From Candidatus Helarchaeota ASGARD archaeon Hel_GB_B (lineage in GTDB: Archaea > Asgardarchaeota > Lokiarchaeia > Helarchaeales > HEL-GB-B), in assembly GCA_005191425.1 (NCBI GenBank), contig SUPR01000024.1, positions 1 to 32,000 on the forward strand: 32,000 nt of DNA, given 5' to 3'. The position numbers were made by a program, and so were the translations under genes. Below the pieces are notes generated by a model. That model was given only the letters and a program-made list of their open reading frames with translations, had not been told where the DNA came from and ran no database searches. Positions 1 to 31,051 of this stretch are shown in pieces (position 1 is the first letter of the stretch; each line of letters opens with the position of its first letter).

Positions 1-415
1 TTCTTCTATTATGTTCTTCAGGCATTCTAAAATCATATGACCTGAGTCCAGCTTCAATATGCCCAACCTTAATATGTAATTTAACTGCAGCAAGAGCTCC
101 AGCAAGTGCAGAATTTGTATCACCTTGTACCAATAAAATTTTAGGAATATTATCCAGAAGTATATGTTCAATCCCAATTATTGCTTTTCCGGTCTGCTCA
201 CCTTGTGTTCCTTTACCAATTTTTAGGTGATATTTGGGGTTCTTTAATTCTAAATCTTCAAAAAACTTTTTTGATAATTCGTAATCATAATGCTGGTCTG
301 TAAAAATTATGTCAAATTCTAAATTCTCTTTTTCAAGTTCCCTAATAATTGGAGCTAATTTTATAATTTCCGGTCGAGTACCCATTACAATAGTAATTTT
401 TTTCTTTTTTATCAA
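1..415 (-). CDS. wecB: UDP-N-acetylglucosamine 2-epimerase (non-hydrolysing WecB family), 5' part only; runs off the window
   Basis: Manual translation of the minus strand from TTG at 415 gives ...ITIVMGTRPEIIKLAPII...FTDQHYDYELSKKFFEDLEL...LVQGDTNSALAGALAAVKLHIKVGHIEAGLRSYDFRMPEEHNRR. This carries the GTRPE, GDT and HIEAGLRS..PEE.NR motifs. AGGA lies upstream. Confidence 0.95.
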   Translation of the reverse strand, partial: MIKKKKITIVMGTRPEIIKLAPIIRELEKENLEFDIIFTDQHYDYELSKKFFEDLELKNPKYHLKIGKGTQGEQTGKAIIGIEHILLDNIPKILLVQGDTNSALAGALAAVKLHIKVGHIEAGLRSYDFRMPEEHNRR

Positions 416-448: not shown

Positions 449-2776
449 TTATTGGGTAATATTAACAAAAGGAATAAAATATATTTCTGAATATTGATTG
501 CAGTACATTTTAATATATGGAGTACTTGATGAATTAACCCATCCTTGTTCTAAATCAGGGGTAATATATAATTTTTTAATTTTAGATTTAAAAAATGTAT
601 AAAAATACCAATTATGGACAAAATAATTTGTCATAAAAACCGTATTAAATCCAATATATAATCTATTAGTATCGTTCCTTATTGAGTTAAAATAACTTGG
701 TTTTAGGTAATTTAAATCTTGGATATATACAAAACTATGATTTCTATCCCAAAATAGTCCTATATTTAGGTACATACCTCTAGTCCCTACAATATACAAT
801 GTATTTTCAGTCCAATTATTGTAAGTGCCGTACCACTGGGCACCATATACTTCAGATTTAAAATTAATCGTCCCTGAACCTATTGAAGTTGCTGTAAATG
901 AATAAAGATTTAATGGAGAAAGTATAATTATGGAGATAAAAAAGAACCCAAGTTTCCAGCGCCTCTTCTTTTTACCTTTAATTAGAGTAATTAGATAGAA
1001 ACTTGAATAAATAGTTAAAGGCTCAAAGCAAAAAATAATTGTCCGGGATGGTTGCTCATATGTTCCTTGAAGTGCAAAAAAAGCCGTTATCAACGATATA
1101 CCTAGAATCCACCCTAAAAGTATAATATATTCTAATTTATTTATCCTAAAACCCATGACAAATCCAATAATACCAAATGTTAATGAATATGCTATTGTAA
1201 TTAATAATGTAGCAAAAAATTCAAAAGGAATAAAGTTGACCATATCATGAGTTAAAGGAAAATAATACCAAAACCAAGGATTGAATAAAATTAAGACAAT
1301 TATACCAAATAATATGTATCCCAACCATCCTATTTCAAACTTTAATATTGGTTTTTCGTCTTTTATCATTTTTGATATATAATATGTGAAAATAAAGGTA
1401 ACAAAAATACCTATTAACCCCAATATTCCATATTTTATGAGGTCAAAAATTGAAGTTATCCCAAATTGGACGTCAGATATGTTAAAATTATAAGTCCATA
1501 AAATTGTAAAAATATAACACGGAATTAGAGTAATGAAAATTTTCAAATTGAAACCCTTCTTAAATGAGAGCAAAATAAAGCCGGTCATTATTATTATTGC
1601 GCCAACAATAATCGATACAATATGAGAAACACATAAAAATAAAAACAAAAACACAAAAATTGATACATTTTTTATTGAATAATCATTGTAAATTCTGATA
1701 AAACTAATTATTAAAATAGAAACTATAAAATCACCAATTAACTGAGGCCAAATTACAGATGTAGACGATAAAAACACAGGAGATGCAATAGTTAGAAACA
1801 GCCCCGTTATTAATGCATTTTTCCAACTTTTTGTTATCATTTTTGCCAATAACATTAAAGAAATAATAATACAACTACCAAAAAAGATTGGAATTAACCT
1901 AAATAAACTTAATAAACTCAGACCAGTAATATAATAACTTCCCATTAACGATAAATAAAAAATCGGATAATAGAATTTGTAGAGATACATATATGAAGTA
2001 TCAAAATAAGAGTGTTCTATTGCATCTCTTACAAATGCATAATGAACCCATTGATCACTTGCCCAACTAAAATAGGGGAGCATTATGTTAAAATATTGAG
2101 AATAATAATTTATATATATTCTATATAATATTCCAAGACAAAAAATAAGAAAAATGGGCAATAAGACGTATTTAAAAATATAACGTGTATTTTTATAAGA
2201 ATTATAATACCTTAAATTGAGCTCAAATGTCTTATATCTTTTTATCCATAAAATCGAGGTCGATATTATATTGAAAATTAATAACAGATGAAATGAATAT
2301 GTTTCATCAATATAATGAATAGATATATTTAAAATATAGAGACTTAAACCGGAAATACAAATACTTAATACCACTCCAATTACAGATTTTAACAGCTTAT
2401 TAATATCCGAATCTTTAGTATATATAATATTAATAATACAATATCCGGGAACAAAAAAGATAAATAAAAAACCAAAAAAATAACGAAAAAAAGCTAAATT
2501 AGGTATATAAAAACCAAATATCGTAAACAAGTTAATTATTAATAAAAACCACAAATCAAAATTTGAGTAATGTTTTAAAAAAATTAGGACGCTATTTTGA
2601 GTATTATCATTTCCCTTCTTTTCTATAATAATAGTTTTCTTAACTAAGTCTTTTATTATATTTAATGTTTCCTTATCGGATTTGTTATATTTACTTTCAA
2701 TAAATTCTTTTAAATCCTTAGCAGTGAAATTTTCGTTTTCTAAGATTATCTTTTGGATGTCATTAATTAAGTTCAA
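449..2776 (-). CDS. Large polytopic membrane protein: short soluble N-terminus, DUF1616-like TM block, GT-C-fold-like body and external C-terminal domain
   Basis: 775 aa, TTG start. FFGFLFIFFVPGY resembles the DUF1616 signature. A WASDQWVHY loop follows the first TMs of the second module, as in the acidic first external loop of GT-C enzymes. More than 12 hydrophobic segments; sequon-rich C-terminus. Confidence 0.6.
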   Translation of the reverse strand: MNLINDIQKIILENENFTAKDLKEFIESKYNKSDKETLNIIKDLVKKTIIIEKKGNDNTQNSVLIFLKHYSNFDLWFLLIINLFTIFGFYIPNLAFFRYFFGFLFIFFVPGYCIINIIYTKDSDINKLLKSVIGVVLSICISGLSLYILNISIHYIDETYSFHLLLIFNIISTSILWIKRYKTFELNLRYYNSYKNTRYIFKYVLLPIFLIFCLGILYRIYINYYSQYFNIMLPYFSWASDQWVHYAFVRDAIEHSYFDTSYMYLYKFYYPIFYLSLMGSYYITGLSLLSLFRLIPIFFGSCIIISLMLLAKMITKSWKNALITGLFLTIASPVFLSSTSVIWPQLIGDFIVSILIISFIRIYNDYSIKNVSIFVFLFLFLCVSHIVSIIVGAIIIMTGFILLSFKKGFNLKIFITLIPCYIFTILWTYNFNISDVQFGITSIFDLIKYGILGLIGIFVTFIFTYYISKMIKDEKPILKFEIGWLGYILFGIIVLILFNPWFWYYFPLTHDMVNFIPFEFFATLLITIAYSLTFGIIGFVMGFRINKLEYIILLGWILGISLITAFFALQGTYEQPSRTIIFCFEPLTIYSSFYLITLIKGKKKRRWKLGFFFISIIILSPLNLYSFTATSIGSGTINFKSEVYGAQWYGTYNNWTENTLYIVGTRGMYLNIGLFWDRNHSFVYIQDLNYLKPSYFNSIRNDTNRLYIGFNTVFMTNYFVHNWYFYTFFKSKIKKLYITPDLEQGWVNSSSTPYIKMYCNQYSEIYFIPFVNITQ

Positions 2777-3085: not shown

Positions 3086-4291
3086 TTAAGTTTCTCGGAT
3101 CTTCTTACTCGAAAACATATCCGCAAGTAATCCTGTACACAAAATTTGGATTCCAGTAAGAATTAATAGTGATGTCAAAGTAATTTGGCCGAATGATAAA
3201 TGGCATCTCAGTATGAATGATTCATATACATTATATACCCCCAATAAAATCCCTACTAATAAAATTATTACGCCAATCAAACCAAATAAAGCAATGGGAT
3301 GATAATCTCTAAATGTTTTAAAGAGTATTAATGAAGTTCTAATGCCATATTCAGCAGAGTCGCTCATTAATCTGGATTTTCCTTTATTTCGTTTCTTAAA
3401 TGTAATAGGTACTTCTCTAACTCTGAATCCCTCTTCTACTGCGCGAATTATCATTTCTTGAGTGTATGTATATGAGGAACTTAAATGCAAAACTTCTAAT
3501 AATTCAGCTTTTATTACTCTAAATCCGGTATTAGGGTCTTTTAAAGGGAGCCCCGTAACATTTCTGACCATCCATGAAAAAATTTTGTTACCAAGCCTTT
3601 TAATACCGGACATTTTCTCTATTTTTCCCAGAAATCGCGAACCCAATACCAAATCTGCTGCATTTTTTCTTATTAAATCCAATAATGAATCAATTTCTTC
3701 GGCTAAATATTGACCGTCCGCATCAATTGTAATAATTATATCAGCATTTTGCTTTAAAGCTTCTCTCAGTCCGGCTCGCATTGCTCTTCCCAGCCCTTTA
3801 TTCCTGTAGAAAGAAACGACCGTAGCACCTAAATCATATGCAATTTTTTCAGTTCTATCAGTAGACCCATCATTAACTACAATAATTTCATTGGTATAAC
3901 TTTTACATTTCTTAATTACACTTCCAATTGTTTCCTCTTCATTGTAAGCAGGTATTACAATAATTATTTTTTTCTTTGATAGGTCAATTGGATTTTCCTT
4001 TTTTAGAATTATAGGTTTATATTTCTTTTTTCTAAATACCTTTTTTAAAAAATGTATTGTAAAAAGAACCAGTCCACCTAAAAAACACCACCAAGCGAAT
4101 GCTCCGATATAACTAATTATGCCGAATAAGGGATATAGATCTAAAGGCCAAAATATAAATGAATATAAAAAATTAGGGACTGTAATTATAAAACCATAAA
4201 TAAAAGAGATAATAGCAAAAACAATGGGAATGCAAATGAGTAAAAAAGCTAATGCCCATAAACTCCAAGCAATTGACCTAATTTTGACCAT
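3086..4291 (-). CDS. GT2 glycosyltransferase, DPM1/GtrB-like polyprenyl-phosphate sugar synthase, with an extra N-terminal membrane segment
   Basis: VIPAYNEE, VVNDGSTD, N.GLG.A, DADGQY, GSRF and FRVREVPI motifs. Two C-terminal TMs ending G.QI..TGLLAD, plus about 85 hydrophobic N-terminal residues. Confidence 0.9.
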   Translation of the reverse strand: MVKIRSIAWSLWALAFLLICIPIVFAIISFIYGFIITVPNFLYSFIFWPLDLYPLFGIISYIGAFAWWCFLGGLVLFTIHFLKKVFRKKKYKPIILKKENPIDLSKKKIIIVIPAYNEEETIGSVIKKCKSYTNEIIVVNDGSTDRTEKIAYDLGATVVSFYRNKGLGRAMRAGLREALKQNADIIITIDADGQYLAEEIDSLLDLIRKNAADLVLGSRFLGKIEKMSGIKRLGNKIFSWMVRNVTGLPLKDPNTGFRVIKAELLEVLHLSSSYTYTQEMIIRAVEEGFRVREVPITFKKRNKGKSRLMSDSAEYGIRTSLILFKTFRDYHPIALFGLIGVIILLVGILLGVYNVYESFILRCHLSFGQITLTSLLILTGIQILCTGLLADMFSSKKIRET

Positions 4292-4330: not shown

Positions 4331-5542
4331 TTAACTTGTCAATTTTTTATAGATTTTTAAATATTCTTTATAAATGGTATTGATATTTCTATTTTGTAAT
4401 AAATATTGTCTTGCATTTTTTATAATTTTTCCCCTTAAATCATCATTTTTCAATAGTAATAGTATTTTATTGACTAATTGAGTTGTATTTGAAGGCTCAA
4501 TTAAGAGACCAGTTTCTTTGTCCTTAATAATTTCATTTATACCACCAATATTTGAAGCAATAACTGGACATTTCATCTTAAATGCTTCTAGAATTACATT
4601 TGGTAGTCCTTCTTCAATAGAATATATTCCTTTTATTGAAGGTAAAATTAGGACTTCTGCATTTTTAAGGTAATGATAGACATCATTATGAGGAACCGAA
4701 CCTTTAAATATAATATGTTTCTCTAATCCATCTATTTCTATTTTTTCTTTCAATTTTTTAAAGTATTTTTCATTAATTTCTGTAGAACCTATTAATATTA
4801 ATTTCAAAGTTTTATAATTACTTAATACTCTCTTAAATGCATCAATTAATGTATTTAATCCTTTATAATAGACAATTCTCCCGACATATAAAAGATATCT
4901 ATTTTCTCTAATTTTTTCTTTATTTTGAATACCATCGCTTTTATAATAATTTAAAGAAACTCCTGAGGGAATAACGCGAACTTTTTTGTGATTTTGAATA
5001 TATCCTTTACTTAAAATATACTTTTTAATAAATTGACAATTAGATATGATTATATCTGAATTTTTTAATGACATCATTTCAAATTTTTCTAATAAAATGT
5101 GAAAAATTTCTTTAAATATTTGATTTCGGAATATCAAGTTCATTTTTTCTATTTTATTTTCATAATATTCATTATATTTAGCGCCTATTCTAATTACTAA
5201 GGGTATTTCAAATATTTTTTTAATAAGAGTACCAATTAAACCACCTAAATGGGGGTCAAAAATTTGAATTAAATCAATTCTTTTTTTTCGGAATACTTTT
5301 AGAAACGCAAAAAAAAGTGAAACATACCGTATTAATAATAAATAATTATAAGACTTTTTTCCTACTAGATGAATATCCAAATATTTTAAATATTCCAGTC
5401 CATCTTTAGAAACTTTTTTGCTTCTATCAGAAATAATTATGACTGAATGATTATTTTTTTTTAGAAATTTTGCTAATTCAAGCGCTTGTATTACTTGTCC
5501 GCCACCTTTTTCTAATTGGGGTAATAAGAATAAAATTCGCAT
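4331..5542 (-). CDS. GT4 family glycosyltransferase
   Basis: N-terminal GGGQ, YVGRIVYYKG, and LILPS...EGLPNVILEA (E-X7-E) followed by PVIASNIGGINEII. Confidence 0.92.
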   Translation of the reverse strand: MRILFLLPQLEKGGGQVIQALELAKFLKKNNHSVIIISDRSKKVSKDGLEYLKYLDIHLVGKKSYNYLLLIRYVSLFFAFLKVFRKKRIDLIQIFDPHLGGLIGTLIKKIFEIPLVIRIGAKYNEYYENKIEKMNLIFRNQIFKEIFHILLEKFEMMSLKNSDIIISNCQFIKKYILSKGYIQNHKKVRVIPSGVSLNYYKSDGIQNKEKIRENRYLLYVGRIVYYKGLNTLIDAFKRVLSNYKTLKLILIGSTEINEKYFKKLKEKIEIDGLEKHIIFKGSVPHNDVYHYLKNAEVLILPSIKGIYSIEEGLPNVILEAFKMKCPVIASNIGGINEIIKDKETGLLIEPSNTTQLVNKILLLLKNDDLRGKIIKNARQYLLQNRNINTIYKEYLKIYKKLTS

Positions 5543-5556
5543 TAAATTTACCTAAT

Positions 5557-6804
5557 TTAACTTTTTTGTTCAATTTTTTTAATTAAGTAAAGAATCCTTT
5601 TTGTTAAATTGAGTCGTTCATATTTTTTAATTTCATTATCAGGATATTCAACTAATTTTTTACTTTTAATAAAATAATTGATCTTTTTTATTAAGAAATC
5701 TTTTATTTCCTTTATTTTTTTAGGGTCAATAACCACACCAACTTTATTTTGTGTAATAAGCTTTGCACATATCCCATTGATAGGTACCAAACCTAGTATT
5801 GGTTTTTTAGCACGCATATATTCATAAATCTTACTTGGAATAATTATTTCTGTTTCTTTTTTTGGATATAATAGGACTAAATTTAGGTCAGAACTTATCA
5901 TTAATTCGATTGTAGATTTTTTCGATATGAAACCAAGCAGCTGTACATTATTTAAATTCATTTCTTTTACTAATTTTTCTACATATTTTGGATATTTTCC
6001 ACAAAAAATTATTTGAAATTTGTCGCTTAAATCTTTTCTTTCATCTAATAGTAGTTTTATCGCTTGAAAAAAATGTATTGGATTTACATAATTACCTGGA
6101 TAAAGAGTACCAGCATGAAGTATAGTAAAGCGTTTAAACTGAATAGGTGAAATATTTCTAAATGCTGAATCATCATAACCAAAAGGAATAAAAAAAATCT
6201 TAGAACTGTCAATTTTTATATTGTTTAGAATATCAATATATTTTTCAGAGGCTATAAAAATCAGGTCAGTCTCATTTAAAATTTTTCGCTCTAAGTGTTT
6301 AGCAATAAAATAATAATACCGTTTTTTTAAATTTAAATATGGATTCTGAGTCCATAAATCAGCAAGATATATCATTAATTTAATATTAGTTAGTTTTTTA
6401 AGCATATAGCCTAATATTAAATTGCTTGCAGGAGGTACCATGACAAATAAATGTGTAATCTTATTTTTTTTAATAATATGAGTTCCCATTATAAGTGAAT
6501 ACAATATCCAACTAACATATTGATCTGGAAACAGTAAGTGCCGAAATATAACTCTAAAAATTTTGTAGCGTCGTAAAAATTTTATGATGAAAAATTCTCT
6601 TATCCTAAAAATCATTTTGTTATGCAATTTATTGTCTCTTATATAATTTTCATAAAAATCAAGTTTACTCGTTATTACATAAGATTTTATCCGTAATTTA
6701 TCAAAATTTTTAAATAATGATGAACAAAAGTCGGCATCTCGACCATTTAAAGGAGGAAACCTATACGACAATATACCAATTTTCTTTTCAACTATTATTA
6801 TCAC
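5557..6804 (-). CDS. GT4 family glycosyltransferase (PSK.YEY subtype)
   Basis: SYRFPP N-terminus, DLW..NPY, IPFGYD, HAGTLY, IPSKIYEYMRAKKPIL. Start uncertain (GTG). Confidence 0.88.
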   Translation of the reverse strand: MIIIVEKKIGILSYRFPPLNGRDADFCSSLFKNFDKLRIKSYVITSKLDFYENYIRDNKLHNKMIFRIREFFIIKFLRRYKIFRVIFRHLLFPDQYVSWILYSLIMGTHIIKKNKITHLFVMVPPASNLILGYMLKKLTNIKLMIYLADLWTQNPYLNLKKRYYYFIAKHLERKILNETDLIFIASEKYIDILNNIKIDSSKIFFIPFGYDDSAFRNISPIQFKRFTILHAGTLYPGNYVNPIHFFQAIKLLLDERKDLSDKFQIIFCGKYPKYVEKLVKEMNLNNVQLLGFISKKSTIELMISSDLNLVLLYPKKETEIIIPSKIYEYMRAKKPILGLVPINGICAKLITQNKVGVVIDPKKIKEIKDFLIKKINYFIKSKKLVEYPDNEIKKYERLNLTKRILYLIKKIEQKS

Positions 6805-7993
6805 CAGTTCTTATTTTTTTGTATACCTCCAGTAATTTTACTGCTTGTTTTTCCCAATTATATTTGATTTGAGCATTTTTCGATATTTCGTCTCTGTTCC
6901 AATTCATTTTTAGTCCCTCAACGATTTTTAAAAACATATCCTCAAGGTTATTGATTTTAAATAATAGACCATTTTTATATTCTTTAATATGATATCTGAA
7001 AATTGGAATATTAGGACAAATACATGGTGTTCCACATGAAAGCGCCTCGATAGTAGTCATTGACCAGCTCTCATCAATTGATGGATTGATATAGAGATCT
7101 GCCAAATTGTAATAATAAATTAAATTTAGACGGGATATCCAACCAAAAATATGAATATTTTTAGTTAATTGTTTGAGTTCTCTTTTTAATTTTAATCTTA
7201 ATTTTTTATTTTTTATCCCAATTATAATGATATTAACTATAATACCTCTATCAATTAATAGTTTGCAAATTTTTATGAATTTGTAGAATCCTTTCTCTTC
7301 TATTGGTAATCCTACGTATAAAATTGTCTTACTCATATTATTAAATAATTTATAAGTAGAATTATTTAATTTTAATATGTGAAATCTTCTTGGATTAATC
7401 CCAATTCCTATTATTTCCATTTTTTTATCTGAGATCCTAAATTTTTTATTAAGAATATATTGATGATAATTACTAAAGCACAGAAATTTATTACATGGTA
7501 ATCGAGATATGATAAGATCTCTTATAAAAAATTTAATGTTTGAAAGTTTGGATATATTCTTAAAGATTAAATTTTTAGATGGAATGGCGTTTGGACCAAT
7601 TATACACGGTAAATTTAATAATTTACATGTTAATGCCCCAAAAAAGCTCGTGATGAAGCCAGAAAATAAATGTACTACTGTTTTTTCTTGTTTCAATTGT
7701 ATTAATTTTTTAACTAAATAAATAGGAGATCCTTTAATCAAGAAAATAATAAACTTTTGAAGTCTACTAAATCTATTTTTATTTGAATCATTATAATATT
7801 CTTTTTCAAATATAAAATAATTTGGAACTTGCTTTTTTTTAGCTCCTTTTATAATAAGTTTAAGAGTAATTATGATAATTTCCAATTCTCTCTTATCTAT
7901 ATACTCAATTATCTCCATAAAAGGATAATTTTTTGTAAATTTGTCCTTTACTATAAAATCATTTATCCAAATAATATTCATCAATAAAATCAA
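6788..7993 (-). CDS. GT4 family glycosyltransferase
   Basis: IGIGIN, YVG....KG, and ADLYINPSIDESWSMTTIEALSCGTP (E-X7-E). Overlaps the downstream gene by 17 nt. Confidence 0.88.
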   Translation of the reverse strand: MILLMNIIWINDFIVKDKFTKNYPFMEIIEYIDKRELEIIIITLKLIIKGAKKKQVPNYFIFEKEYYNDSNKNRFSRLQKFIIFLIKGSPIYLVKKLIQLKQEKTVVHLFSGFITSFFGALTCKLLNLPCIIGPNAIPSKNLIFKNISKLSNIKFFIRDLIISRLPCNKFLCFSNYHQYILNKKFRISDKKMEIIGIGINPRRFHILKLNNSTYKLFNNMSKTILYVGLPIEEKGFYKFIKICKLLIDRGIIVNIIIIGIKNKKLRLKLKRELKQLTKNIHIFGWISRLNLIYYYNLADLYINPSIDESWSMTTIEALSCGTPCICPNIPIFRYHIKEYKNGLLFKINNLEDMFLKIVEGLKMNWNRDEISKNAQIKYNWEKQAVKLLEVYKKIRTGDNNS

Positions 7994-8139: not shown

Positions 8140-10290
8140 ATGATTAATAACAAGAAATCCATTGTACATTATTCAAACTATTCATTCAATATGCTTTTTA
8201 TGTTAATTTCCTATTCTATTGCTTATTTATCAAATTTTTTTCTCGATATTTTTACTTCTTGGATTGGAGGGCCAACATTACTTGGAACAGTTAATTTGAC
8301 AAGAAAATGGGCATTAATTATCGCTACAATTTTAGAACTTGGAATCGTAAGCACAATTCCAAAATTTATAGCAGAAAATAGAAAAGGAAATTTTATTAAA
8401 ATTTCAGTTATAATTTTAATATTAGATACATTCACTTGTTTAACATCTGGGATTCTTTTATACTTTTTATATCCATTTAATAATTTTTTAATAATAGAAT
8501 TTGGGCTGATATCTGCGTCTTCAATAATATTTCATGGACTTTTTTATTCAATATCCAGGGGAAGAGAAAGAATTAAACAAATGTTTTACCTACAATTTTC
8601 ACTAGCTACCATCCGTTTAATTAGTTTTATTGTATTAATCATAGTTGGATTTGATTTATTTTTAGTAATTCTTTTAAGTTTTGCTATAATTCCAATTATT
8701 GCAATCCTATTAATCATTCCATTTATGAATTTCAAACAACTGCTCTCAAAAAATCCTAAAATTATGAACAATAATAAATTGTCATTTACAAGTTATTTTA
8801 AATTCACAATGCCGGTTTATGGTTCTACGATTATTGCAATTGTTGCCTCTCAGATGGACATAATATTCATTGGTTTCTTTTTTACGCCTAATGAATTTGG
8901 ACTTTATTTAGTCGCCGTTTCTATTACAGGTGTTTTAAGCGTCATCAATAACGCAGTCAATATACTTCTTTTACCAAAAATTTCCAAAATTTCTAATGAT
9001 AAATCAAAAGTTATTTCCTTAATGAACCAATCTTTAAAATTCTTTTTCTTAATTTATATTCCTATTTCACTTATTATATTATTTTATCCAGATATTATCA
9101 TCCATTTTTTATATGGCCCAGGATATTCAGCAGCGACCTTTATCAGTATGAGAATTTTAATTATTTCATCTATTTTTACCCAAATTAGTTCCATTTTTAT
9201 TGAATTTTTTATCGCATTAAATAGACCTACCTATAAATTATATGGACTTATTTTATTATTAATTTCTAAATTTTCTTTTTTATCAATTTTTATTCCAATA
9301 AATGGTATCTATGGTATAAGCCTTGCTGTTATTTTATCAGAATTAATTCAATTTACTTTTCTTTTTATCTTATTCAAAAAATTATTAAAACAGAAATATT
9401 CTAATAATAAAATTTATTTTAAACGTTTGGACTTCCGGTTCTGGATTTTATCAATAACCATTCCTTCAATAATTTTTGGATCGGGACTTTTTATTCCAAA
9501 TTATTTTTTTAAATTGCTAATCATTGGAGGGGGATTACTGATAATTTTTATACTCTATTTATTTACAGGAAAACTATTTTTCTTATCTAATTTATTTAGG
9601 AATGGAATTCAAAAGTATTCTACTCAGAGAACTCAAATAATTTCTTCCCGTATTCATTATATCCTATCTAAATTACTACATAAAATACCAGTTATATTAG
9701 ATGATGGATGTGGAAGGGGTAATATTACCTTAGAACTTGCTAAATATTATTATATTGTAGCAATCGAGCCCATGGCCAAAAATTTTAAAAATAATTTAAA
9801 ATTAAAAAGGAAAAATCTAATGTCTAATTTCATTGTTAGTTCCGGAGAAAATCTACCATTTAAAAATAATACCTTCGATTTCATACTTTCTCAAATGGTC
9901 CTGGAGCATTGTGATTCTTCCGAAAAATATATAAAAGAAACATCTAGAATACTTAAAAATCAAGGCTTTCTATATATCTCAATTCCAAATCGTTTATTCC
10001 CTATCGAGCCACATACTAAATTACCTTTTATCTCATATTTACCAGTAAAGTTTCAACCATATCTTAGAAAATTAGTTAATTTCCAATTTACTTTTCCCCG
10101 AATTATTAATTTACTTAATTTATTCTATAATAAAGTTTATGATATTAATTTATTTATTCTAAAAAATAAATTTTATTACTCAAATTATTTCCTTTTATTT
10201 TATATTTCTCACAATTTCAAATATATTAAATTTTTTTACCCTTTAATTAAATTTATTATTCCTTCTTGGGCATTTTTAATCAAAAAGTAG
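8140..10290 (+). CDS. Fusion: MOP/Wzx-type oligosaccharide flippase (about aa 1-485) plus class I SAM-dependent methyltransferase (about aa 487-716)
   Basis: About 14 hydrophobic segments with DIIFIGFF..NEFGLYLVA and LLPKISK motifs typical of Wzx/Polysacc_synt. In the same frame follow VILDDGCGRG (motif I), GENLPFKNNTFDFI, VLEH and RILK..GFLYISIPN. Confidence 0.85.
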   Translation: MINNKKSIVHYSNYSFNMLFMLISYSIAYLSNFFLDIFTSWIGGPTLLGTVNLTRKWALIIATILELGIVSTIPKFIAENRKGNFIKISVIILILDTFTCLTSGILLYFLYPFNNFLIIEFGLISASSIIFHGLFYSISRGRERIKQMFYLQFSLATIRLISFIVLIIVGFDLFLVILLSFAIIPIIAILLIIPFMNFKQLLSKNPKIMNNNKLSFTSYFKFTMPVYGSTIIAIVASQMDIIFIGFFFTPNEFGLYLVAVSITGVLSVINNAVNILLLPKISKISNDKSKVISLMNQSLKFFFLIYIPISLIILFYPDIIIHFLYGPGYSAATFISMRILIISSIFTQISSIFIEFFIALNRPTYKLYGLILLLISKFSFLSIFIPINGIYGISLAVILSELIQFTFLFILFKKLLKQKYSNNKIYFKRLDFRFWILSITIPSIIFGSGLFIPNYFFKLLIIGGGLLIIFILYLFTGKLFFLSNLFRNGIQKYSTQRTQIISSRIHYILSKLLHKIPVILDDGCGRGNITLELAKYYYIVAIEPMAKNFKNNLKLKRKNLMSNFIVSSGENLPFKNNTFDFILSQMVLEHCDSSEKYIKETSRILKNQGFLYISIPNRLFPIEPHTKLPFISYLPVKFQPYLRKLVNFQFTFPRIINLLNLFYNKVYDINLFILKNKFYYSNYFLLFYISHNFKYIKFFYPLIKFIIPSWAFLIKK

Positions 10291-10323
10291 TAATAAAAGC
10301 TATGAAGCAACCTTCAATTCGTA

Positions 10324-11523
10324 TTATCTCATTATTTTTTTGTATTCTGTGTAATAATTTTTTACCATTTTTTCCAGGGTAAATCGAGTTGAATTAGACA
10401 ATGAATTTCGACTAAATTTTTCGTATATATCTTTATTTGAATATATAGTTTCAATTTTTTTCACAATATCTTCAATTTTTATTGGTTCTTTAAGATATAA
10501 CCCATTATAACCATTTTTAATAATTTCATTAGCAAATCTGGAGTTTGGGACTATTACTGGGAGACTCGCAAACTGGCTTTCTATTAATGATAGAGACATA
10601 CCTTCTTCAGTTGATAAATGAACAAATATGTCTGAAATGCCTAGAAAGTCTCTTTTATCTTCCTCTGAGACCCATCCAGGGATAATTATATTTCCCTCAA
10701 CACCTAATTTTTTTGCCAATTTAAATAAATTTTGTCTTTCTCTTCCCTCACCCAAAATTATTACTTTTACACCTGGAAATTTCGTACTAAGCCTTGGAAT
10801 TGCTTTAATTAATAAATCGTTTCTTTTGCTCTTTATTAACCTACCTGTCATTATTATTATTGGTCTATTAATTTCCTTATTTAATTCATATTTTCTAAAC
10901 ATTTTTTTATTTCTATAATATGAATAATCTACTTTTGGTGTCCCATTTAATATCATGTTTGTATTTTTAATTCTTAATTCTTTTTTAATATCTTTTTCCA
11001 ATCTCTTGCTTACGCAAATTACTTTATCGGCTCTTTTTAAGATATATCGGAATGTCTTCCTTAATATTTTTTGTATATTATAAAAATCCGCTGGACCATG
11101 AACTGTAATTATTAAAGGTATCTTTAATAACTTCTTAATTATAATTCCTATTAATCCTGTTGGAACAATAAATGAAGAATGTATTAACGATATCTTTAAC
11201 TTTCTACAAATCTTAAATAAGATTATTAATTCCCCTAAAAGATCGCCCAATGCAACTAGCATTCTTAAATATTTTGATTTTACATTTATTCCAATTCCCA
11301 ACTTTTTTATTTTTTCTGGCAGATAATTTTCAAAACGCCTAACAGTTAGTCCATTTATTATTTCTTTTTTCTTTAAATTTTTATATCGCCTTGTAATTAT
11401 AATTGACTCTATTTGATATTTTTTTAATCCTTTACATAAATTTAAAACAAAATATTCTGCACCACCACCAGTAATAGGAAAAAAGCCTGGAATTAAATGA
11501 ATTACCCTTTTACTTTTTATCAT
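10324..11523 (-). CDS. GT4 family glycosyltransferase
   Basis: FFPITGGGAE, ITVHGPAD, ICVS, ILNG, TGRLIKSK, and FVHLSTEEGMSLSLIES (E-X7-E). Confidence 0.92.
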   Translation of the reverse strand: MIKSKRVIHLIPGFFPITGGGAEYFVLNLCKGLKKYQIESIIITRRYKNLKKKEIINGLTVRRFENYLPEKIKKLGIGINVKSKYLRMLVALGDLLGELIILFKICRKLKISLIHSSFIVPTGLIGIIIKKLLKIPLIITVHGPADFYNIQKILRKTFRYILKRADKVICVSKRLEKDIKKELRIKNTNMILNGTPKVDYSYYRNKKMFRKYELNKEINRPIIIMTGRLIKSKRNDLLIKAIPRLSTKFPGVKVIILGEGRERQNLFKLAKKLGVEGNIIIPGWVSEEDKRDFLGISDIFVHLSTEEGMSLSLIESQFASLPVIVPNSRFANEIIKNGYNGLYLKEPIKIEDIVKKIETIYSNKDIYEKFSRNSLSNSTRFTLEKMVKNYYTEYKKIMR

Positions 11524-11804
11524 TTTTATCTATTTCTTATCATTTCTTAATTTCTAATTATTACAATTAACTAGTGTTATTTTTTATATCAAATCCTTTT
11601 TTTTAACTTATTATTCAATGAATTTCTCTTTAATATCAATTGATTTTCGATTTATCACTATATTGATTATGTATTTTTAATCATTCTTAAAATCGAAAAT
11701 TTTATTAATTCAATAAGTAACTTTCTATCACCTTATTCCTTACTTTTTTGAGGAATAAGATATATCCATTATTTATAATTTATAAACTAAGAGTGAAATA
11801 TATT

Positions 11805-12170
11805 ATGGCTAAAGATAAAATTTATGGCGCTTTGATCCTTGTGATTGCTTTAATAGCACTAATTTGGTATTTTCTCTATGCAGTTATATACGGTGGATTC
11901 TATGGATGGTACCTCACTAAGACAGCTGCAATAACGGCTATGATCAATGCAGGATGGCCATCTTGGCTTGTCGCTGGAATTACCCTTGGTGGACTTTCAT
12001 GGCGTTGGGCTGTAATAGGGCCAATGTTTATTATGGCGGCAGTTATCCTTGGAATCGCAATGTGGATAGGCTTTACAATGCTTACAACTCCACCTCCAGT
12101 ACCTCTTGAAGAGCTTGAAGAGTTAGGGCTCGAAGAGGAAGGCGAGGAAGAAAATAAAGAAGAAAAATAG
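11805..12170 (+). CDS. Small two-TM membrane protein with acidic tail; archaeal TTPPP family, DPM2-like by eye
   Basis: ATG at 11805 with GAGTGA upstream (the ORF track starts at 11748). 121 aa, two hydrophobic helices, ending WIGFTMLTTPPPVPLEELEE... Confidence 0.7.
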   Translation: MAKDKIYGALILVIALIALIWYFLYAVIYGGFYGWYLTKTAAITAMINAGWPSWLVAGITLGGLSWRWAVIGPMFIMAAVILGIAMWIGFTMLTTPPPVPLEELEELGLEEEGEEENKEEK

Positions 12171-12856: not shown

Positions 12857-13987
12857 ATGTTAGATAAAGAAGAGATATTAAAGTTAGATAAATTAAATAT
12901 ATCGAAAGATATTTACAAATTACCGGAAAGTATGATCCAAGCAAGAAATAGTTGCAAGACGATAGATTTTTTATCGATAAAACAGATAATAAACTCAAGA
13001 GAATTTCCCAATTTTCCTAATTGTTGTATAATATGTGGAATGGGAGGTTCGGCGATTAGTGGAGACATTTTACACGATTATTTAGCAATGAAAGTAAAGT
13101 TTCCGATTATTACATTAAGAAATTATGAGCTCCCAACATATGTAAATGAAAATTCATTAGTTTTTATAATAAGTTATTCAGGAAATACAGAAGAAACATT
13201 AAATGCCTTAAAGGAGTCATTAGAAAGGGGAGCATTAATAATAGGGATTTCTTCAGGAGGAAAATTGAAGGAATTTTGTAAGAAATTACAAATACCGTTA
13301 ATATTAGTACCTGCAAATTTAGCGCCAAGAGCTGCTTTGGGATATTTATTTACGTCATTATTAATAACTTTACAAGAGCTTGGATTAATAGAACCGATTG
13401 ATGACGAAATTTCAGAAATGATAGAAGTAATGAAGGTATTAAGAGAGGAAATTTCAATAAAAGTTCCATTAGAAAATAATATTGCAAAACAAATAGCACT
13501 TAAATGTATCAATAATATTCCAGTAATTTATATAGATAATAATTATAAGTCAGTAGCTAAAAGATTTAAATCGCAAATTAATGAAAACAGTAAGATGCCA
13601 TGTAAAATTGATGAGTTTCCAGAATTAAATCATAATGAAATTGTAGGTTGGGAATGCTCACTTGAAATGTCTAAAAAATTTATATGTTTATTATTAAGGA
13701 CTTCTAATGAGATAGAGCCAATTAAAACAAGGATAGAATTGACCAAATCGATTATTCTTAAGGAGAAATTAATAGATGTAATAGAGATTTACGCTAGAGG
13801 CGAATCCAAATTAAGTCAAATTTTTTCGTTAATTCTTATTGGCGATTATATCAGTTTATATTTAGCTATACTAAATAATCAAGACCCATCACCTACAGAA
13901 TCAATTGCTCGTTTAAAGACCGAACTAAAAAATCAATTAAATCTTGTCCAGAAAATTGAAAATGACCTATTTGCAAAAGAAGCATAG
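12857..13987 (+). CDS. Bifunctional phosphoglucose/phosphomannose isomerase (SIS-fold PGI/PMI)
   Basis: GMGGSAISGD, SYSGNTEETL, ISSGGKL, PRAALGY, RFKSQINENSK, PELNHNEIVGW and GDYISLYLA motifs. Confidence 0.95.
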   Translation: MLDKEEILKLDKLNISKDIYKLPESMIQARNSCKTIDFLSIKQIINSREFPNFPNCCIICGMGGSAISGDILHDYLAMKVKFPIITLRNYELPTYVNENSLVFIISYSGNTEETLNALKESLERGALIIGISSGGKLKEFCKKLQIPLILVPANLAPRAALGYLFTSLLITLQELGLIEPIDDEISEMIEVMKVLREEISIKVPLENNIAKQIALKCINNIPVIYIDNNYKSVAKRFKSQINENSKMPCKIDEFPELNHNEIVGWECSLEMSKKFICLLLRTSNEIEPIKTRIELTKSIILKEKLIDVIEIYARGESKLSQIFSLILIGDYISLYLAILNNQDPSPTESIARLKTELKNQLNLVQKIENDLFAKEA

Positions 13988-16655: not shown

Positions 16656-16851
16656 TTTTAAATTTAGTCTTAGTATTAATATAATTAGCTTGGGTTCTTA
16701 TTTTATTTTTATTTAAATTTATCTTACTTTTTCTGAAAAAATATTTATAAATTATTTGATTTAGATTTTTAAGTAAAAATATATTCAAATATGAATAATA
16801 ATTTATTACAATTATAAAATAATATAGATAACATTTTTAATGGAGATAAAA

Positions 16852-17721
16852 ATGGCGAGCAAACCAAAAACAATCTTTGAGCGATTAGAAGAGCGTATGG
16901 AAAAATTAGAACAAATTATTAATACAATTGTTCCTGGAATTTTGGACCAAGTTATTCCTGCATTGGATAAAGTAAAAGAAGATCTTCCAGCTTCTATTGG
17001 GCCTAATTTAATGAATTTTGCAGATATGATAGGAGAACAGATAGAAAATGTTTCGAAATCGGTTTCTAGTATTTCTTCTCCAGGTGGAGGAGGACCTGTA
17101 AATGTTGATTTATCTGAAGTTACTGCATCTTTGAATAAAATATTAGATAGTTTTAATGTATTATTAAAAGGTTTTGACCAAGTAAATTCAAAAATAGACA
17201 ATTTAACCAGTGAAATTTCATTATTAAAGAACGATGTTAATCAAATCAAAGCAATAAGTAGTTCAGTAGCACCAGTAACACAAACTGCTCCACCAGTAAA
17301 TGTAAGACCTCAAGTCACTGCCCAACCAGCAACACCAGCTCCTGCAAGCTTTCAAGCCACTGCGCAACCTAAACCTACACCAACAATTAAAGCAGCTCCA
17401 GCACCTACTATTACTCCGCAAGAAAAAATTCCAACGATTACCACTGAATCATCAGTAGTTCCAACAGAGGTTTTTGACCTTTTTGATTCAATTACTGAGA
17501 AACTTAAATCCGGAATGTTGGCACAACAAATGGCACAACACATGGAACAAGTCCGTGATAAAATCGTAAATATATATAAATGGCACCCTACCTTATATGA
17601 ATTAGCGTCTCAGGCAAGAAAACTTAAAAAAGCAGGAGTTGAAGACCCAGTCGATGCTGATACATATCAATTATTACTAGAAAAAGTACAAGAGTGGAAA
17701 CAAAGAATAAAAACAGGCTAA
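16852..17721 (+). CDS. Coiled-coil plus Pro/Ala/Thr-rich linker plus C-terminal four-helix domain resembling the Vps28 CTD (candidate ESCRT-I-related protein)
   Basis: 289 aa from ATG 16852 (GGAG 6 nt upstream; the ORF track starts at 16840). Heptad segment about 17104-17250, low-complexity linker about 17251-17460, helical domain LFDSITEKLK...EDPVDADTYQLLLEKVQEW. The CDS call is firm; the Vps28 call is by eye only. Confidence 0.6.
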   Translation: MASKPKTIFERLEERMEKLEQIINTIVPGILDQVIPALDKVKEDLPASIGPNLMNFADMIGEQIENVSKSVSSISSPGGGGPVNVDLSEVTASLNKILDSFNVLLKGFDQVNSKIDNLTSEISLLKNDVNQIKAISSSVAPVTQTAPPVNVRPQVTAQPATPAPASFQATAQPKPTPTIKAAPAPTITPQEKIPTITTESSVVPTEVFDLFDSITEKLKSGMLAQQMAQHMEQVRDKIVNIYKWHPTLYELASQARKLKKAGVEDPVDADTYQLLLEKVQEWKQRIKTG

Positions 17722-23636: not shown

Positions 23637-24077
23637 TTAAAATTTCCAGTAATGGTCTATCACATTTTTTCTGGATAAATAGTTTAAAAAGAATATACCA
23701 ATGATAAATATTATTAATGGAATAGATGTTATGAATAAAAATATCCAGCCGATTTTTCTGCTCTTTTTAAAATAATAAATACCACTTAAAATGACTATTG
23801 AATAAATTAAGAATATAACACCAAGTGCTAATGATAAAGCGTTTATATTCGTATTAGACAGGCCAAACTGTGCTAAAAAAGTATTTCCATTTCCCATCAA
23901 ATTATCAAGACCAAATTGCTGGAAAATCCAACCTATCAAATTATTTATTAGGGGTGTTAGAATTTCAATAACTAAATAGCTAAACAATGAAGTGTAATTT
24001 GGAAGAGGTGATGGTATAAAGTTCAAAATAGAAATTATGAGTCCAATTATAATTATAAGAATATAAAAATAAATCAT
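23637..24077 (-). CDS. Hypothetical membrane protein (3-4 TM)
   Basis: 146-aa ORF with clear hydrophobic segments, ending IIGIFFLNYLSRKNVIDHYWKF; co-oriented with rpl30. Confidence 0.75.
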   Translation of the reverse strand: MIYFYILIIIIGLIISILNFIPSPLPNYTSLFSYLVIEILTPLINNLIGWIFQQFGLDNLMGNGNTFLAQFGLSNTNINALSLALGVIFLIYSIVILSGIYYFKKSRKIGWIFLFITSIPLIIFIIGIFFLNYLSRKNVIDHYWKF

Positions 24078-24179
24078 TAAATCAGGAAAATATCCTTTAT
24101 TATTTTGAATTTTAATCTACCGACCAAAATCATTTAATTTAAAATGAATAGGATTATCTATAATAGAAAAATATTAAAT

Positions 24180-24674
24180 TTAAATCATTTTCATTATTAA
24201 ATCATTTATTTCCGTATTTCTATTTCCGAGTACGCCTCCTGCTTTATAGTGCCTTTTAATTTTACCATGATGTCCACCTTTTGGAGGTCTTAATCGGAAA
24301 ACAGGTTTTATTTTCTGGATATCATGAATATTTATTTCGTTAGAAATTATTGCCTTAGACAAATCTTTGATGGATTGATATTCAGTGTATTTTTTCAGAT
24401 ATTGGTCAGTTAATTTTTTGCGGCCTTCCAGTCTACCTCTCTTTTTTAGTAGTAATTCCAGAGTATCTTCGTTTATTTCGCCCCATGTTGTATAATCTTT
24501 TACTTTTTGGAGCATTCCTAAATAAGATTTGCGGTCATCAATTAGTACAGCGTGGTTTATTCGGTTTAATCTTAACATCTTTAATGTGTCTTTAACTTCT
24601 TTTCTAACATTTACATTTCCGCGGATTCTTACAACTATAAGCTTTTTATTTCCTTTTTCATTAACTTGGGACAT
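24180..24674 (-). CDS. rpl30: 50S ribosomal protein uL30 (archaeal long form), inverted relative to the operon
   Basis: VVRIRG.VNV, TLKMLRL.R.NH, GMLQKVKDY.TWGEI, PVFRL.PPKGG, GGVLG.R...INDLI.KMI. ATG 24674 preferred over GTG 24683. Confidence 0.98.
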   Translation of the reverse strand: MSQVNEKGNKKLIVVRIRGNVNVRKEVKDTLKMLRLNRINHAVLIDDRKSYLGMLQKVKDYTTWGEINEDTLELLLKKRGRLEGRKKLTDQYLKKYTEYQSIKDLSKAIISNEINIHDIQKIKPVFRLRPPKGGHHGKIKRHYKAGGVLGNRNTEINDLIMKMI

Positions 24675-24936
24675 TGTGTTCACTAATTGCCTAAAATAAT
24701 TAATAATTTTAAAAATCTATATTTTGTTTTAAATTTTATGATAGTGATTAATAAAATTTTTAAACAATAAATATGCCATATTTCTGATACAATTATATTA
24801 TAAAAATTGTAAATAAAAGTTCTTTTTATTTACTATTATTTCAATTAAATTTTTTTAATTATTATTTAAATTATATTTTTAAATAATGGTTTGAGATTAT
24901 TAGATAGAATTAATCTCTTTTTAAGATGAAAAAACA

Positions 24937-30949: not shown

Positions 30950-31051
30950 GCCGGGATAGCCAAGCGGATTACGGCGCAGGCCTGGAGTTATTTCGTTGCT
31001 TGAGAGCCTGTGACACTCTGTGTCGCGTGAGTTCGAATCTCACTCCCGGCG
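30950..31051 (+). tRNA. tRNA-Ser(GGA) with a 17-nt intron (30988-31004) at canonical position 37/38; CCA not encoded
   Basis: Acceptor stem GCCGGGA/TCCCGGC, D-stem GCC/GGC, anticodon stem CAGGC/GCCTG, long variable arm GACAC-TCT-GTGTC, T-arm GTGAG-TTCGAAT-CTCAC, discriminator G. Confidence 0.93.

Follow-up and report, generated by a model that had tools for sequence, protein, structure and literature searches.

An uncultured Asgard (Helarchaeota-type) archaeon, known from a metagenome-derived assembly, encodes a single polypeptide that joins a 14-TM MOP/Wzx-type flippase to a class I SAM methyltransferase (MTase), and we confirm this fusion as genuine (Table 1). It lies in the window, the whole 32,000-nucleotide stretch of DNA that was analysed, within a glycan locus. 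The best explanation for the fusion, its conservation, its folds, its SAM motifs and the content of its locus, to which we give a probability of about 0.6, is that the fused MTase methylates a lipid-linked glycan in the cytoplasm and that the same polypeptide then flips the glycan.

Table 1 Features of the fusion gene and the surrounding glycan locus, in window coordinates
Feature	Position	Strand	Basis
UDP-GlcNAc 2-epimerase (WecB-type), N-terminal part, cut by window edge	2..415	-	Profile match
DUF1616 protein, 775 aa, head of locus	449..2776	-	Pfam
AglJ/DPM1-like GT2, likely dolichyl-phosphate hexosyltransferase	3086..4291	-	Pfam Glycos_transf_2; TIGR04182 AglJ E 6e-51, below equivalog cut-off
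Three consecutive GT4 genes (4331-5542, 5557-6804, 6788-7993), divergent from fusion gene	4331..7993	-	Pfam
Flippase–methyltransferase fusion ORF, 716 aa, ATG start, stop codon included	8140..10290	+	ORF listing, Pfam, AF2 model
14-TM MOP/Wzx (Polysacc_synt_3) flippase domain, residues 1-479, predicted N-in/C-in	8140..9576	+	Pfam, hydropathy, AF2, Foldseek
Basic cytoplasmic helix from TM14 to the N-terminal helix of the MTase fold, residues 480-512	9577..9675	+	AF2, conserved residues
Complete class I SAM methyltransferase, residues 490-716, Methyltransf_11 core and C-terminal cap	9607..10287	+	Pfam, homologues, models
SAM motif I LDDGCGRG, residues 520-527	9697..9720	+	D521, G523 and G525 invariant in family alignment
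Family signature PNrlFPIEPHtkLPfisyLP (PNRLFPIEPHTKLPFISYLP), residues 616-635	9985..10044	+	Subfamily alignment
GT4 gene, convergent with fusion gene; same position in all syntenic relatives	10324..11523	-	Pfam, synteny
Bifunctional phosphoglucose/phosphomannose isomerase (PGI/PMI; sugar supply)	12857..13987	+	Profile match

One reading frame across both domains

As the DNA is only ~25% G+C, an open frame of 716 codons is not a product of chance, and Pfam places flippase and MTase families on the protein and no others. Independent contigs agree across the domain junction. In four runs, each from a different study of hydrothermal vent and marine sediment metagenomes, Logan contigs span at least positions 9474-9746 and show no indel, and a single 7.8-kb Logan contig reaches across 8900-10300. 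None of the 25 substitutions in the contigs makes a stop. Among the public runs listed as carrying the sequence, none was RNA.

Judged from sequence, conservation of the fusion falls within a single Asgard clade, the Helarchaeota order, and four further lineages at 40-51% identity (Loki-, Prometh- and Helarchaeota MAGs) retain it. Identity to the window protein is 97% for P0001, 49% for P0002, 51% for P0003 and 50% for P0009, all with both domains; P0007, of 744 aa, also has both and is ~41% identical in the MTase part. The flippase and MTase halves are about equally conserved among these relatives, and a flippase tree groups all of them in one clade (support 100/100). Gene order is shared as well: GT4 genes, fusion, GT4, PGI and S19 operon follow one another around P0007 (G126) and around a P0003-like fragment (L004), and synteny was identical wherever the gene context of relatives was read.

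Nested in the fusion clade is P0010, which has the same 14-TM flippase and synteny but whose frame stops right behind TM14; its lack of the MTase is most simply a secondary loss. Because P0010 exists naturally without the MTase, the flippase scaffold does not depend on it. P0011 was considered as a split, MTase-only form and rejected: its contig carries an inverted duplicate at the 5′ end, and the + frame runs unbroken across linker, TM13-14 and MTase, which makes P0011 a truncated fusion.

Flippase, linker and methyltransferase

The membrane domain matches Polysacc_synt_3 (PF13440) over residues 127-330 with 53.2 bits (cut-off 23); Polysacc_synt (PF01943) scores 26.5 bits over residues 17-284 in hmmscan, slightly below its cut-off of 28.2, and 29.6 bits in a genome-wide profile search. 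Hydropathy and the positive-inside rule give 14 TMs, with K/R-rich loops that alternate and lie on the same side as both termini. The AF2 model of the full protein likewise has 14 TM helices (mean pLDDT 89.6, pTM 0.77), of which TM13-14 span residues 429-476, and its flippase part shows the two-lobed MOP fold. The top structural matches in Foldseek are MurJ (6nc9, TMt 0.73 over 514 columns) and WzxE (9g95, TMt 0.75); MATE structures are also matched (TMt 0.72-0.73). The predicted topology leaves the N and C termini of the membrane domain in the cytoplasm, which would put the MTase on the cytoplasmic face, hanging from TM14, where SAM is available.

In the linker, K492, R497, R504 and K511 are conserved in the fusion alignment, and model confidence falls to pLDDT 69-78 at residues 481-500, which are a likely hinge. 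Because of this dip, the model does not fix the MTase against the flippase entrance, a point that we count against the main reading. A predicted complex of flippase 1-479 and MTase 490-716 scored 0.00 in a run without controls and carries no weight either way.

Methyltransf_11 (PF08241) covers residues 520-613 with 65.7 bits (cut-off 21.2), stand-alone homologues align to residues 495-716, and stand-alone MTase clusters in the ESM Atlas match residues 490-716 (TM 0.76-0.81). Modelled separately, the domain reaches pLDDT 92.1 and, by VIA-align, Z ~20 to many class I MTases, among them small-molecule enzymes such as the sugar MTases RebM and DesVI; against 3l8d, Z is 20.0 with an rmsd of 2.6 over 192 residues. 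For the substrate, fold searches returned only generic class I MTases, without a specific characterised neighbour. Fusions and stand-alone relatives alike retain motif I, E543 (the acidic beta-2 residue), D580 (motif II), E589/H590, N617 and H625. Within the family signature, N617 and H625 are invariant in the subfamily alignment and E623 is nearly so; together with E589/H590, these three are candidate catalytic or substrate-binding residues. The MTase looks catalytically competent, and both its modelled fold and its Z scores concur.

A first-pass annotation had read an in-frame flippase–MTase fusion at 8140-10290, and one ORF with both Pfam domains bears this out. Its concern about an assembly artefact over ~9500-9700 is answered by contigs from four runs, with no stop or frameshift; hydropathy and AF2 agree with its estimate of ~14 TMs; and both motifs that it named (LDDGCGRG at ~9697-9720 and PNRLFPIEPHTKLPFISYLP) are where it had placed them. 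The SAM pocket is intact, with all SAM-binding motifs kept.

Locus context and proposed role

The fusion gene sits among six glycosyltransferase genes (the AglJ-like GT2 and five GT4s), with WecB and PGI/PMI, and is followed beyond the PGI/PMI gene by an S19 ribosomal-protein operon, a boundary kept in relatives. The locus resembles a dolichol-phosphate glycan pathway of archaea, whose lipid-linked glycan the AglJ-like GT2 would likely start, and its content suggests that the fusion protein translocates a polyprenol- or dolichol-linked oligosaccharide. We propose that the enzymes of the locus (AglJ-like GT2, five GT4s, WecB and PGI/PMI) would assemble an oligosaccharide on dolichol phosphate at the cytoplasmic face, that the tethered MTase, working at the membrane surface, would methylate one of its sugars once this lipid-linked glycan is complete or almost so, and that the same fusion protein would then move the methylated glycan outward. 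We infer that the glycan is the substrate, that it is O-methylated and that methylation comes before flipping. The tether probably keeps the tailoring enzyme close to its membrane-bound substrate; we do not think that it is an obligatory gate.

Related modules speak for a link to glycans. Relatives of the MTase module are fused to GT4, GT2, GT29, WecB/TagA and UDP-GlcNAc 2-epimerase, and in G149, a member of the same class, 9 nt separate a Wzx-type gene from a downstream stand-alone class I MTase, next to which comes a GT2. Two findings from elsewhere in the genome are counted against the main reading, namely two further Polysacc_synt flippases in a profile search and an AglB oligosaccharyltransferase on contig C113, outside the fusion locus. 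A search for the Rft1 family gave no match in this genome or in control genomes and is uninformative.

In the same order, the stand-alone MTases nearest in sequence (39-40% identical) adjoin cdc6/orc1 and mevalonate-pathway genes, not glycan loci, and this weighs against a glycan substrate.

The MTase might instead act on the polyprenol or dolichol phosphate carrier, on a membrane lipid head group or on a protein, or might be a non-catalytic SAM-binding module for regulation or docking. We regard this as unlikely, even though the nearest stand-alone homologues in sister genomes lie outside glycan loci and phosphoethanolamine and lipid MTases are among the many fold matches. Against a non-glycan target, most multidomain relatives of the MTase module have glycan enzymes as fusion partners, and the fusion gene is itself embedded among glycosyltransferase genes; against a docking module, the SAM-binding and family-invariant residues are all kept, so the domain is not degenerate.

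Methylation by a tethered enzyme might also act as a trigger. In MurJ, the TM13-14 helices form a lipid-tail groove; were the MTase to dock under the cytoplasmic entrance by the corresponding groove, it could methylate a dolichol-linked glycan held by the flippase, and methylation could then set off translocation. We consider such a machine rather doubtful.

Stricter still is a checkpoint, in which methylation would be an obligatory licence and only methyl-capped glycan would be flipped, giving quality or chain-length control by analogy with WbdD/Wzm-Wzt or WsaE. Conservation of the fusion over relatives 40-51% identical and the joining of the MTase directly after TM13-14 are in keeping with this idea. 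So are two findings from other systems: Wzx flippases can discriminate terminal residues of their substrate (PMC6436433), and where export depends on ABC transporters, methyl caps such as those set by the WsaE MTase domain terminate the chain and license its export (PMC2943079). However, P0010 keeps the same flippase and gene order within the fusion clade and has no MTase, and Pfam found no ABC exporter, kinase or coiled-coil ruler in the glycan-locus ORFs of the window. Nor is there an evident polymer that would need length control, since no Wzy (PF04932) scored over the cut-off in the 94%-complete genome (best 18.6 bits against 31.7), with the proviso that Wzy proteins are very diverse in sequence. 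Wzx pathways, moreover, flip a single unit, which leaves no chain to terminate. We therefore hold an obligatory checkpoint to be improbable. The first-pass annotation had suggested both a physical coupling of methylation to flipping and a WbdD-like capping, quality-control or chain-length checkpoint. The former is reasonable, given the in-frame fusion, the intact SAM motifs and the predicted cytoplasmic face; the latter is not supported, given a locus in which no ABC exporter, kinase or ruler was found, the lack of a Wzy above cut-off and the MTase-less P0010.

That the join is an assembly artefact, as a metagenome-derived assembly might produce, or a recent one-off fusion without function is refuted to the point of hardly deserving consideration by a junction that agrees in four independent runs with no indels, by conserved linker residues in a fusion kept in five diverged lineages and by the flippase tree.

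Related fusions and known systems

The flippase–MTase architecture is not unique to Asgard archaea, and similar joins are sporadic elsewhere. The ESM Atlas holds two bacterial clusters with a Polysacc_synt(_3) and Methyltransf_11 architecture, a lead to Methyltransf_11–Polysacc_synt_3 fusions that was not confirmed at the sequence level. Ten long frames from Acidobacteriota were tested: eight proved to be an ordinary flippase plus open upstream sequence with no second domain, one was without any Pfam match and one was a flippase–FkbM fusion; the Polysacc_synt_3–FkbM MTase fusion of Acidobacteriota G714 (L047) was verified, and its MTase family differs from the Asgard one. A search with the MTase profile for longer proteins found flippase fusions in Asgard archaea only, and the best 150 matches of an exhaustive search included no bacterial flippase–MTase fusion, so the bacterial ones are not close kin. 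They share with the Asgard protein a plan in which a Wzx-type membrane part precedes a tailoring enzyme on the cytoplasmic side, whereas the Asgard fusion is conserved across a clade. Literature searches found no characterised Wzx–MTase fusion, and the first-pass remark that no characterised example was known holds as far as the literature was searched.

The fusion is a real, clade-conserved combination of known parts, and it gives the biology of Asgard surface glycans, as yet almost unexplored, a concrete and foldable candidate. To our knowledge, how flippases sense a finished lipid-linked glycan is poorly understood, both for bacterial Wzx and in the eukaryotic dolichol pathway. A clade-conserved fusion of tailoring enzyme and flippase, together with a natural MTase-less sister, offers a construct pair for telling coupled from co-localised activities. 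If a triggered modify-then-flip machine were true, it would give a natural handle on how a flippase senses a completed lipid-linked oligosaccharide; should the MTase be no more than a tethered tailoring enzyme, the likelier case, the protein is a tidy Rosetta-stone gene fusion and little more.

We know of no solved or studied flippase with such a C-terminal SAM MTase. With Wzx/PST flippases in general, the fusion shares the Polysacc_synt_3 match and a glycosyltransferase-rich locus. It has the same fold as WzxE of E. coli (PDB 9G95 series, PMC11706664; TMt 0.75) and, like the 14-TM MOP protein MurJ (PDB 5T77, 6NC9; TMt 0.73), it has the extra C-terminal TM13-14, although its identity to solved flippase structures is just 14-18%. 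Unlike WzxE and MurJ, it carries a 227-residue cytoplasmic SAM MTase after TM14, is archaeal and would probably use a dolichol-phosphate carrier.

WsaE of Geobacillus stearothermophilus, an MTase with two GT domains, and WbdD of E. coli O9a place methyl caps that end chain growth ahead of ABC-transporter export (PMC2943079). They resemble the Asgard protein in that a glycan MTase is fused to an enzyme of the same pathway, as relatives of the window MTase are to GT4 and GT2. Their exporters, however, are Wzm/Wzt ABC transporters and polymerisation is cytoplasmic, whereas the Asgard partner is a Wzx-type flippase, and neither the kinase nor the coiled-coil ruler of WbdD is found in the 716-aa protein.

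In Haloferax volcanii, the SAM MTase AglP and the flippase-like AglR act in a dolichol-phosphate N-glycan pathway, for which AglR/Agl15 are Wzx-like flippase candidates and AglJ is the initiating GT2 (PMC3871713). We take this pathway as a precedent for the chemistry proposed for the fusion. The likeness extends to an archaeal dolichol-phosphate pathway, a cytoplasmic SAM MTase, a MOP-type flippase and, in the window, an AglJ-like GT2; unlike Agl-type systems, the fusion locus is without an oligosaccharyltransferase. Set beside AglP and AglR by description, the MTase and flippase that are separate proteins in H. volcanii are one in the Asgard fusion.

A flippase and a methyltransferase in one reading frame

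The first-pass annotation described a polysaccharide flippase of about 14 transmembrane segments running in frame into a class I methyltransferase, and quoted two motifs. The single 716-residue open reading frame, its Pfam families and its motif positions bear this out (see table), and both hydropathy and an AlphaFold2 model give 14 segments. NCBIfam matches were limited to weak ones to generic methyltransferases and a weak one to Wzx_EPS. By hydropathy and the positive-inside rule, lysine and arginine are enriched at the N-terminus, in alternate loops and on the C-terminal side of the membrane domain, a distribution that predicts a cytoplasmic methyltransferase. In the AlphaFold2 model, computed from an alignment of 46 sequences (mean pLDDT 89.6, pTM 0.77), the 14 transmembrane helices are joined to a Rossmann-type domain by a helix (480-512) running on from TM14 and into the methyltransferase fold's N-terminal helix. 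Confidence drops at residues 481-500 (pLDDT 69-78), which makes the hinge and the relative domain orientation unreliable in the model. The top Foldseek matches of the membrane half were MurJ, the 14-TM lipid II flippase (6nc9, TMt 0.73 over 514 columns), and WzxE, a 12-TM flippase for lipid III (9g95, TMt 0.75).

Features of the fusion, its locus and related loci
Feature	Position	Details
Fusion open reading frame	8140-10290 (+)	716 aa; locus very AT-rich, G+C about 25%
Polysacc_synt	residues 17-284	Pfam, score slightly under cut-off
Polysacc_synt_3	residues 127-330	Pfam, 53.2 bits (cut-off 23)
Methyltransf_11	residues 520-613	Pfam, 65.7 bits (cut-off 21.2)
LDDGCGRG	residues 520-527, nt 9697-9720	SAM motif I
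PNRLFPIEPHTKLPFISYLP	residues 616-635	second motif
775-aa protein	449-2776 (-)	at the head of the glycan locus; borderline DUF1616, without an NCBIfam family
GT4 genes		three divergent from the fusion, one convergent, a fifth further upstream
GT2 gene		matches AglJ (E 6e-51, under equivalog cut-off) and dolichyl-phosphate hexose transferases
WecB-type epimerase fragment		neighbour gene
Bifunctional PGI/PMI		neighbour gene
140-aa hydrophobic protein	11748-12170 (+)	acidic E-rich tail, no family
293-aa ORF	16840-17721 (+)	in ribosomal-protein operon, G+C dip (0.244)
Minus-strand stretch	23637-24683 (-)	L30 gene (24180-24683) and 146-aa ORF
tRNA	30950-31051 (+)	102 nt; Rfam (45 bits), not reported by ARAGORN
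P0010, flippase-only relative	L002:1854-3311 (+)	485 aa; contig about 19% G+C
G149 Wzx-type and methyltransferase pair	L058:1732-3276 (-)	same class as the window's genome
G714 fusion (Acidobacteriota)	L047:1572-3896 (-)	775 aa; Polysacc_synt_3 63-350, FkbM methyltransferase 587-740

The possibility that the junction is an assembly artefact was addressed at read level, using Logan contigs from four runs, each belonging to a separate study, with metagenomes from hydrothermal vents and marine sediment. One 7.8-kb contig covers the whole of 8900-10300, and each of three others reaches across at least 9474-9746. The comparison over 8900-10300 reported no indel, and 25 substitutions in the Logan-contig strain cause 14 amino-acid changes and no stop. 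The alignment with relatives is colinear across the junction, with TM13, TM14 and linker residues including K492, R497, R504 and K511 conserved. On read-level evidence, architecture, and residue and synteny conservation, the fusion is real.

Modelled alone, residues 490-716 (pLDDT 92.1) have numerous class I small-molecule methyltransferases as fold matches at Z about 20. RebM and DesVI, which methylate sugars, are among them, and no single characterised neighbour stands out. The module superposes on entire stand-alone bacterial methyltransferases of 221-287 aa in the ESM Atlas (TM 0.76-0.81), and in exhaustive phmmer searching, proteins of about 230-290 aa aligned across 495-716 by the hundred, at 30-40% identity. 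Longer proteins carry it fused to GT4, GT2, GT29, WecB/TagA or UDP-GlcNAc 2-epimerase. Family alignments retain motif I (D521, G523, G525), the post-beta-2 acidic residue (E543 here, D in most), D580, E589/H590 and the signature PN...PIEPH...LP (N617 and H625 invariant, E623 nearly so). With these residues retained, the SAM pocket is intact and the domain not degenerate, contrary to the concern that the pocket might be missing.

Relatives and history of the fusion

Word-indexed searching returned a protein of the same length, 716 aa, that is 97% identical, together with the full-length fusions P0002 (49% identity) and P0003 (51%), whose MAGs carry the labels Lokiarchaeota and Promethearchaeota. 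When 1.84 billion representatives were searched exhaustively with phmmer, the only three at E<=1e-30 were P0009 (a 721-aa fusion, 50% identical, labelled Helarchaeota), P0010 and P0011 (252 aa). Within the phylum, two of 400 species genomes have a full-length match: that of the window and G126, its sole congener, whose 744-aa fusion P0007 (about 41% identical within the methyltransferase part) lies on a 16,518-bp contig. P0007 and a P0003-like fragment in locus L004 share the gene order GT4 genes, fusion, convergent GT4, small ORF, PGI/PMI and S19 ribosomal operon.

P0011 was rejected as a stand-alone methyltransferase. Its contig (L004) begins with an inverted duplicate (nt 1-270) of the flippase linker region, and no stop interrupts the plus-strand frame from nt 191 through linker, TM13-14 and methyltransferase; P0011 is a truncated fusion, and the duplicate an assembly artefact of the public metagenome contig. 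P0010, in which a stop directly follows TM14, has the same synteny as the fusions, with the convergent GT4 starting 66 nt past the stop, and is a true methyltransferase-less orthologue. Maximum-likelihood analysis of the flippase part unites the seven sequences in a single clade (100/100). P0010, on a long branch and with deviant composition, groups with P0002 and P0003 (94/96), and this trio lies within a larger group supported at 97/94. Since P0010 nests among fusions, the simplest history would be an ancestral fusion followed by a single methyltransferase loss.

In G149, a Wzx-type gene ends with a stop and is followed, after a 9-nt spacer, by a 228-aa class I methyltransferase gene whose end overlaps a GT2 gene. 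We rejected this pair as an unfused orthologue because identity to the fusion halves is 26-28% and the methyltransferase alignment reaches the PN motif only; the operon is a parallel unfused arrangement in another Asgard lineage.

The first-pass annotation had asked whether the architecture is common and already characterised. By the ESM Atlas listing alone, a cluster of about 752 aa (71 members, mostly Acidobacteriota) has Methyltransf_11 in 99% and Polysacc_synt_3 in 99%, and one of about 678 aa (60 members, mostly Bacillota) has Methyltransf_11 in 100% and Polysacc_synt in 97%. A scan of 401 Acidobacteriota genomes looked for long frames with Polysacc_synt_3, of which ten were tested: one, in G714, carries a C-terminal FkbM-type methyltransferase, eight were ordinary flippases that had open sequence upstream and lacked a second domain, and one matched nothing in Pfam. 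Judged by its domains, the G714 protein is an independent bacterial fusion with another methyltransferase family. Literature searches yielded no characterised flippase-methyltransferase fusion, as the annotation had supposed. We conclude that two ordinary parts are truly fused and clade-conserved in an Asgard glycan locus, in a design recurring sporadically elsewhere.

The glycan locus and its surroundings

The fusion locus contains no ABC exporter or kinase, and profile searches of the 94%-complete genome found no Wzy above cut-off; AglB/STT3 is encoded on a different contig. Two further Polysacc_synt flippases lie on other contigs, and the fusion would therefore serve one particular glycan. 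The DUF1616 protein could be the membrane glycosyltransferase or polymerase that the pathway lacks. The place of the 140-aa protein is taken by a 107-110-aa ORF in L004 and L005, both syntenic with the fusion locus.

The closest stand-alone methyltransferases of the same order (two genomes, 39-40% identity to the module) lie outside glycan loci. Those in L008, L021 and L022 all adjoin cdc6/orc1, and those in L021 and L022 are also near mevalonate-pathway genes (thiolase/HMG-CoA synthase/DUF35), a setting that would speak against a simple glycan picture. A separate Cdc6/Orc1-encoding record (L035, G124:C193) bears the bacterial title 'Candidatus Deferrimicrobium sp.' at NCBI, yet its genome is placed in the window's archaeal order; the record is probably mislabelled.

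Elsewhere in the window, the minus-strand L30 stretch lies within the plus-strand S5 ... SecY ribosomal operon, skews flatten around it, and it may be a local inversion. The 293-aa ORF belongs to no real family; its one match, to Baculo_PEP_C, is below threshold. The tRNA's length suggests an intron-bearing archaeal tRNA.

Coupling of methylation and flipping

In the best-supported reading, glycosyltransferases would work at the cytoplasmic face to build a dolichol-phosphate-linked oligosaccharide, which the tethered methyltransferase would methylate there before the same polypeptide flips it; we infer the substrate, the methylated atom and the order of events. The first-pass annotation had gone further, suggesting that methylation or capping could act as a quality-control or chain-length checkpoint, in its strong form an obligatory methyl cap as export licence, for which the methyltransferase is favourably placed, directly after TM13-14, the helices forming the lipid-tail groove in MurJ. 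Wzx pathways, however, flip a single glycan unit, no polymer machinery is seen in the locus, and the natural methyltransferase-less P0010 shows a flippase scaffold independent of that domain. Although Wzx proteins are able to tell terminal sugars apart (PMC6436433), such a checkpoint, modelled on the ABC-transporter systems of WbdD and WsaE (PMC2943079), is possible but unsupported.

The main value of the fusion is as a natural test case, in which fused forms and a naturally unfused one could tell whether tailoring and flipping are coupled. The proposed roles are mirrored in Haloferax volcanii by the methyltransferase AglP and the flippase candidates AglR/Agl15, which are separate proteins there and fused in the window protein (PMC3871713).
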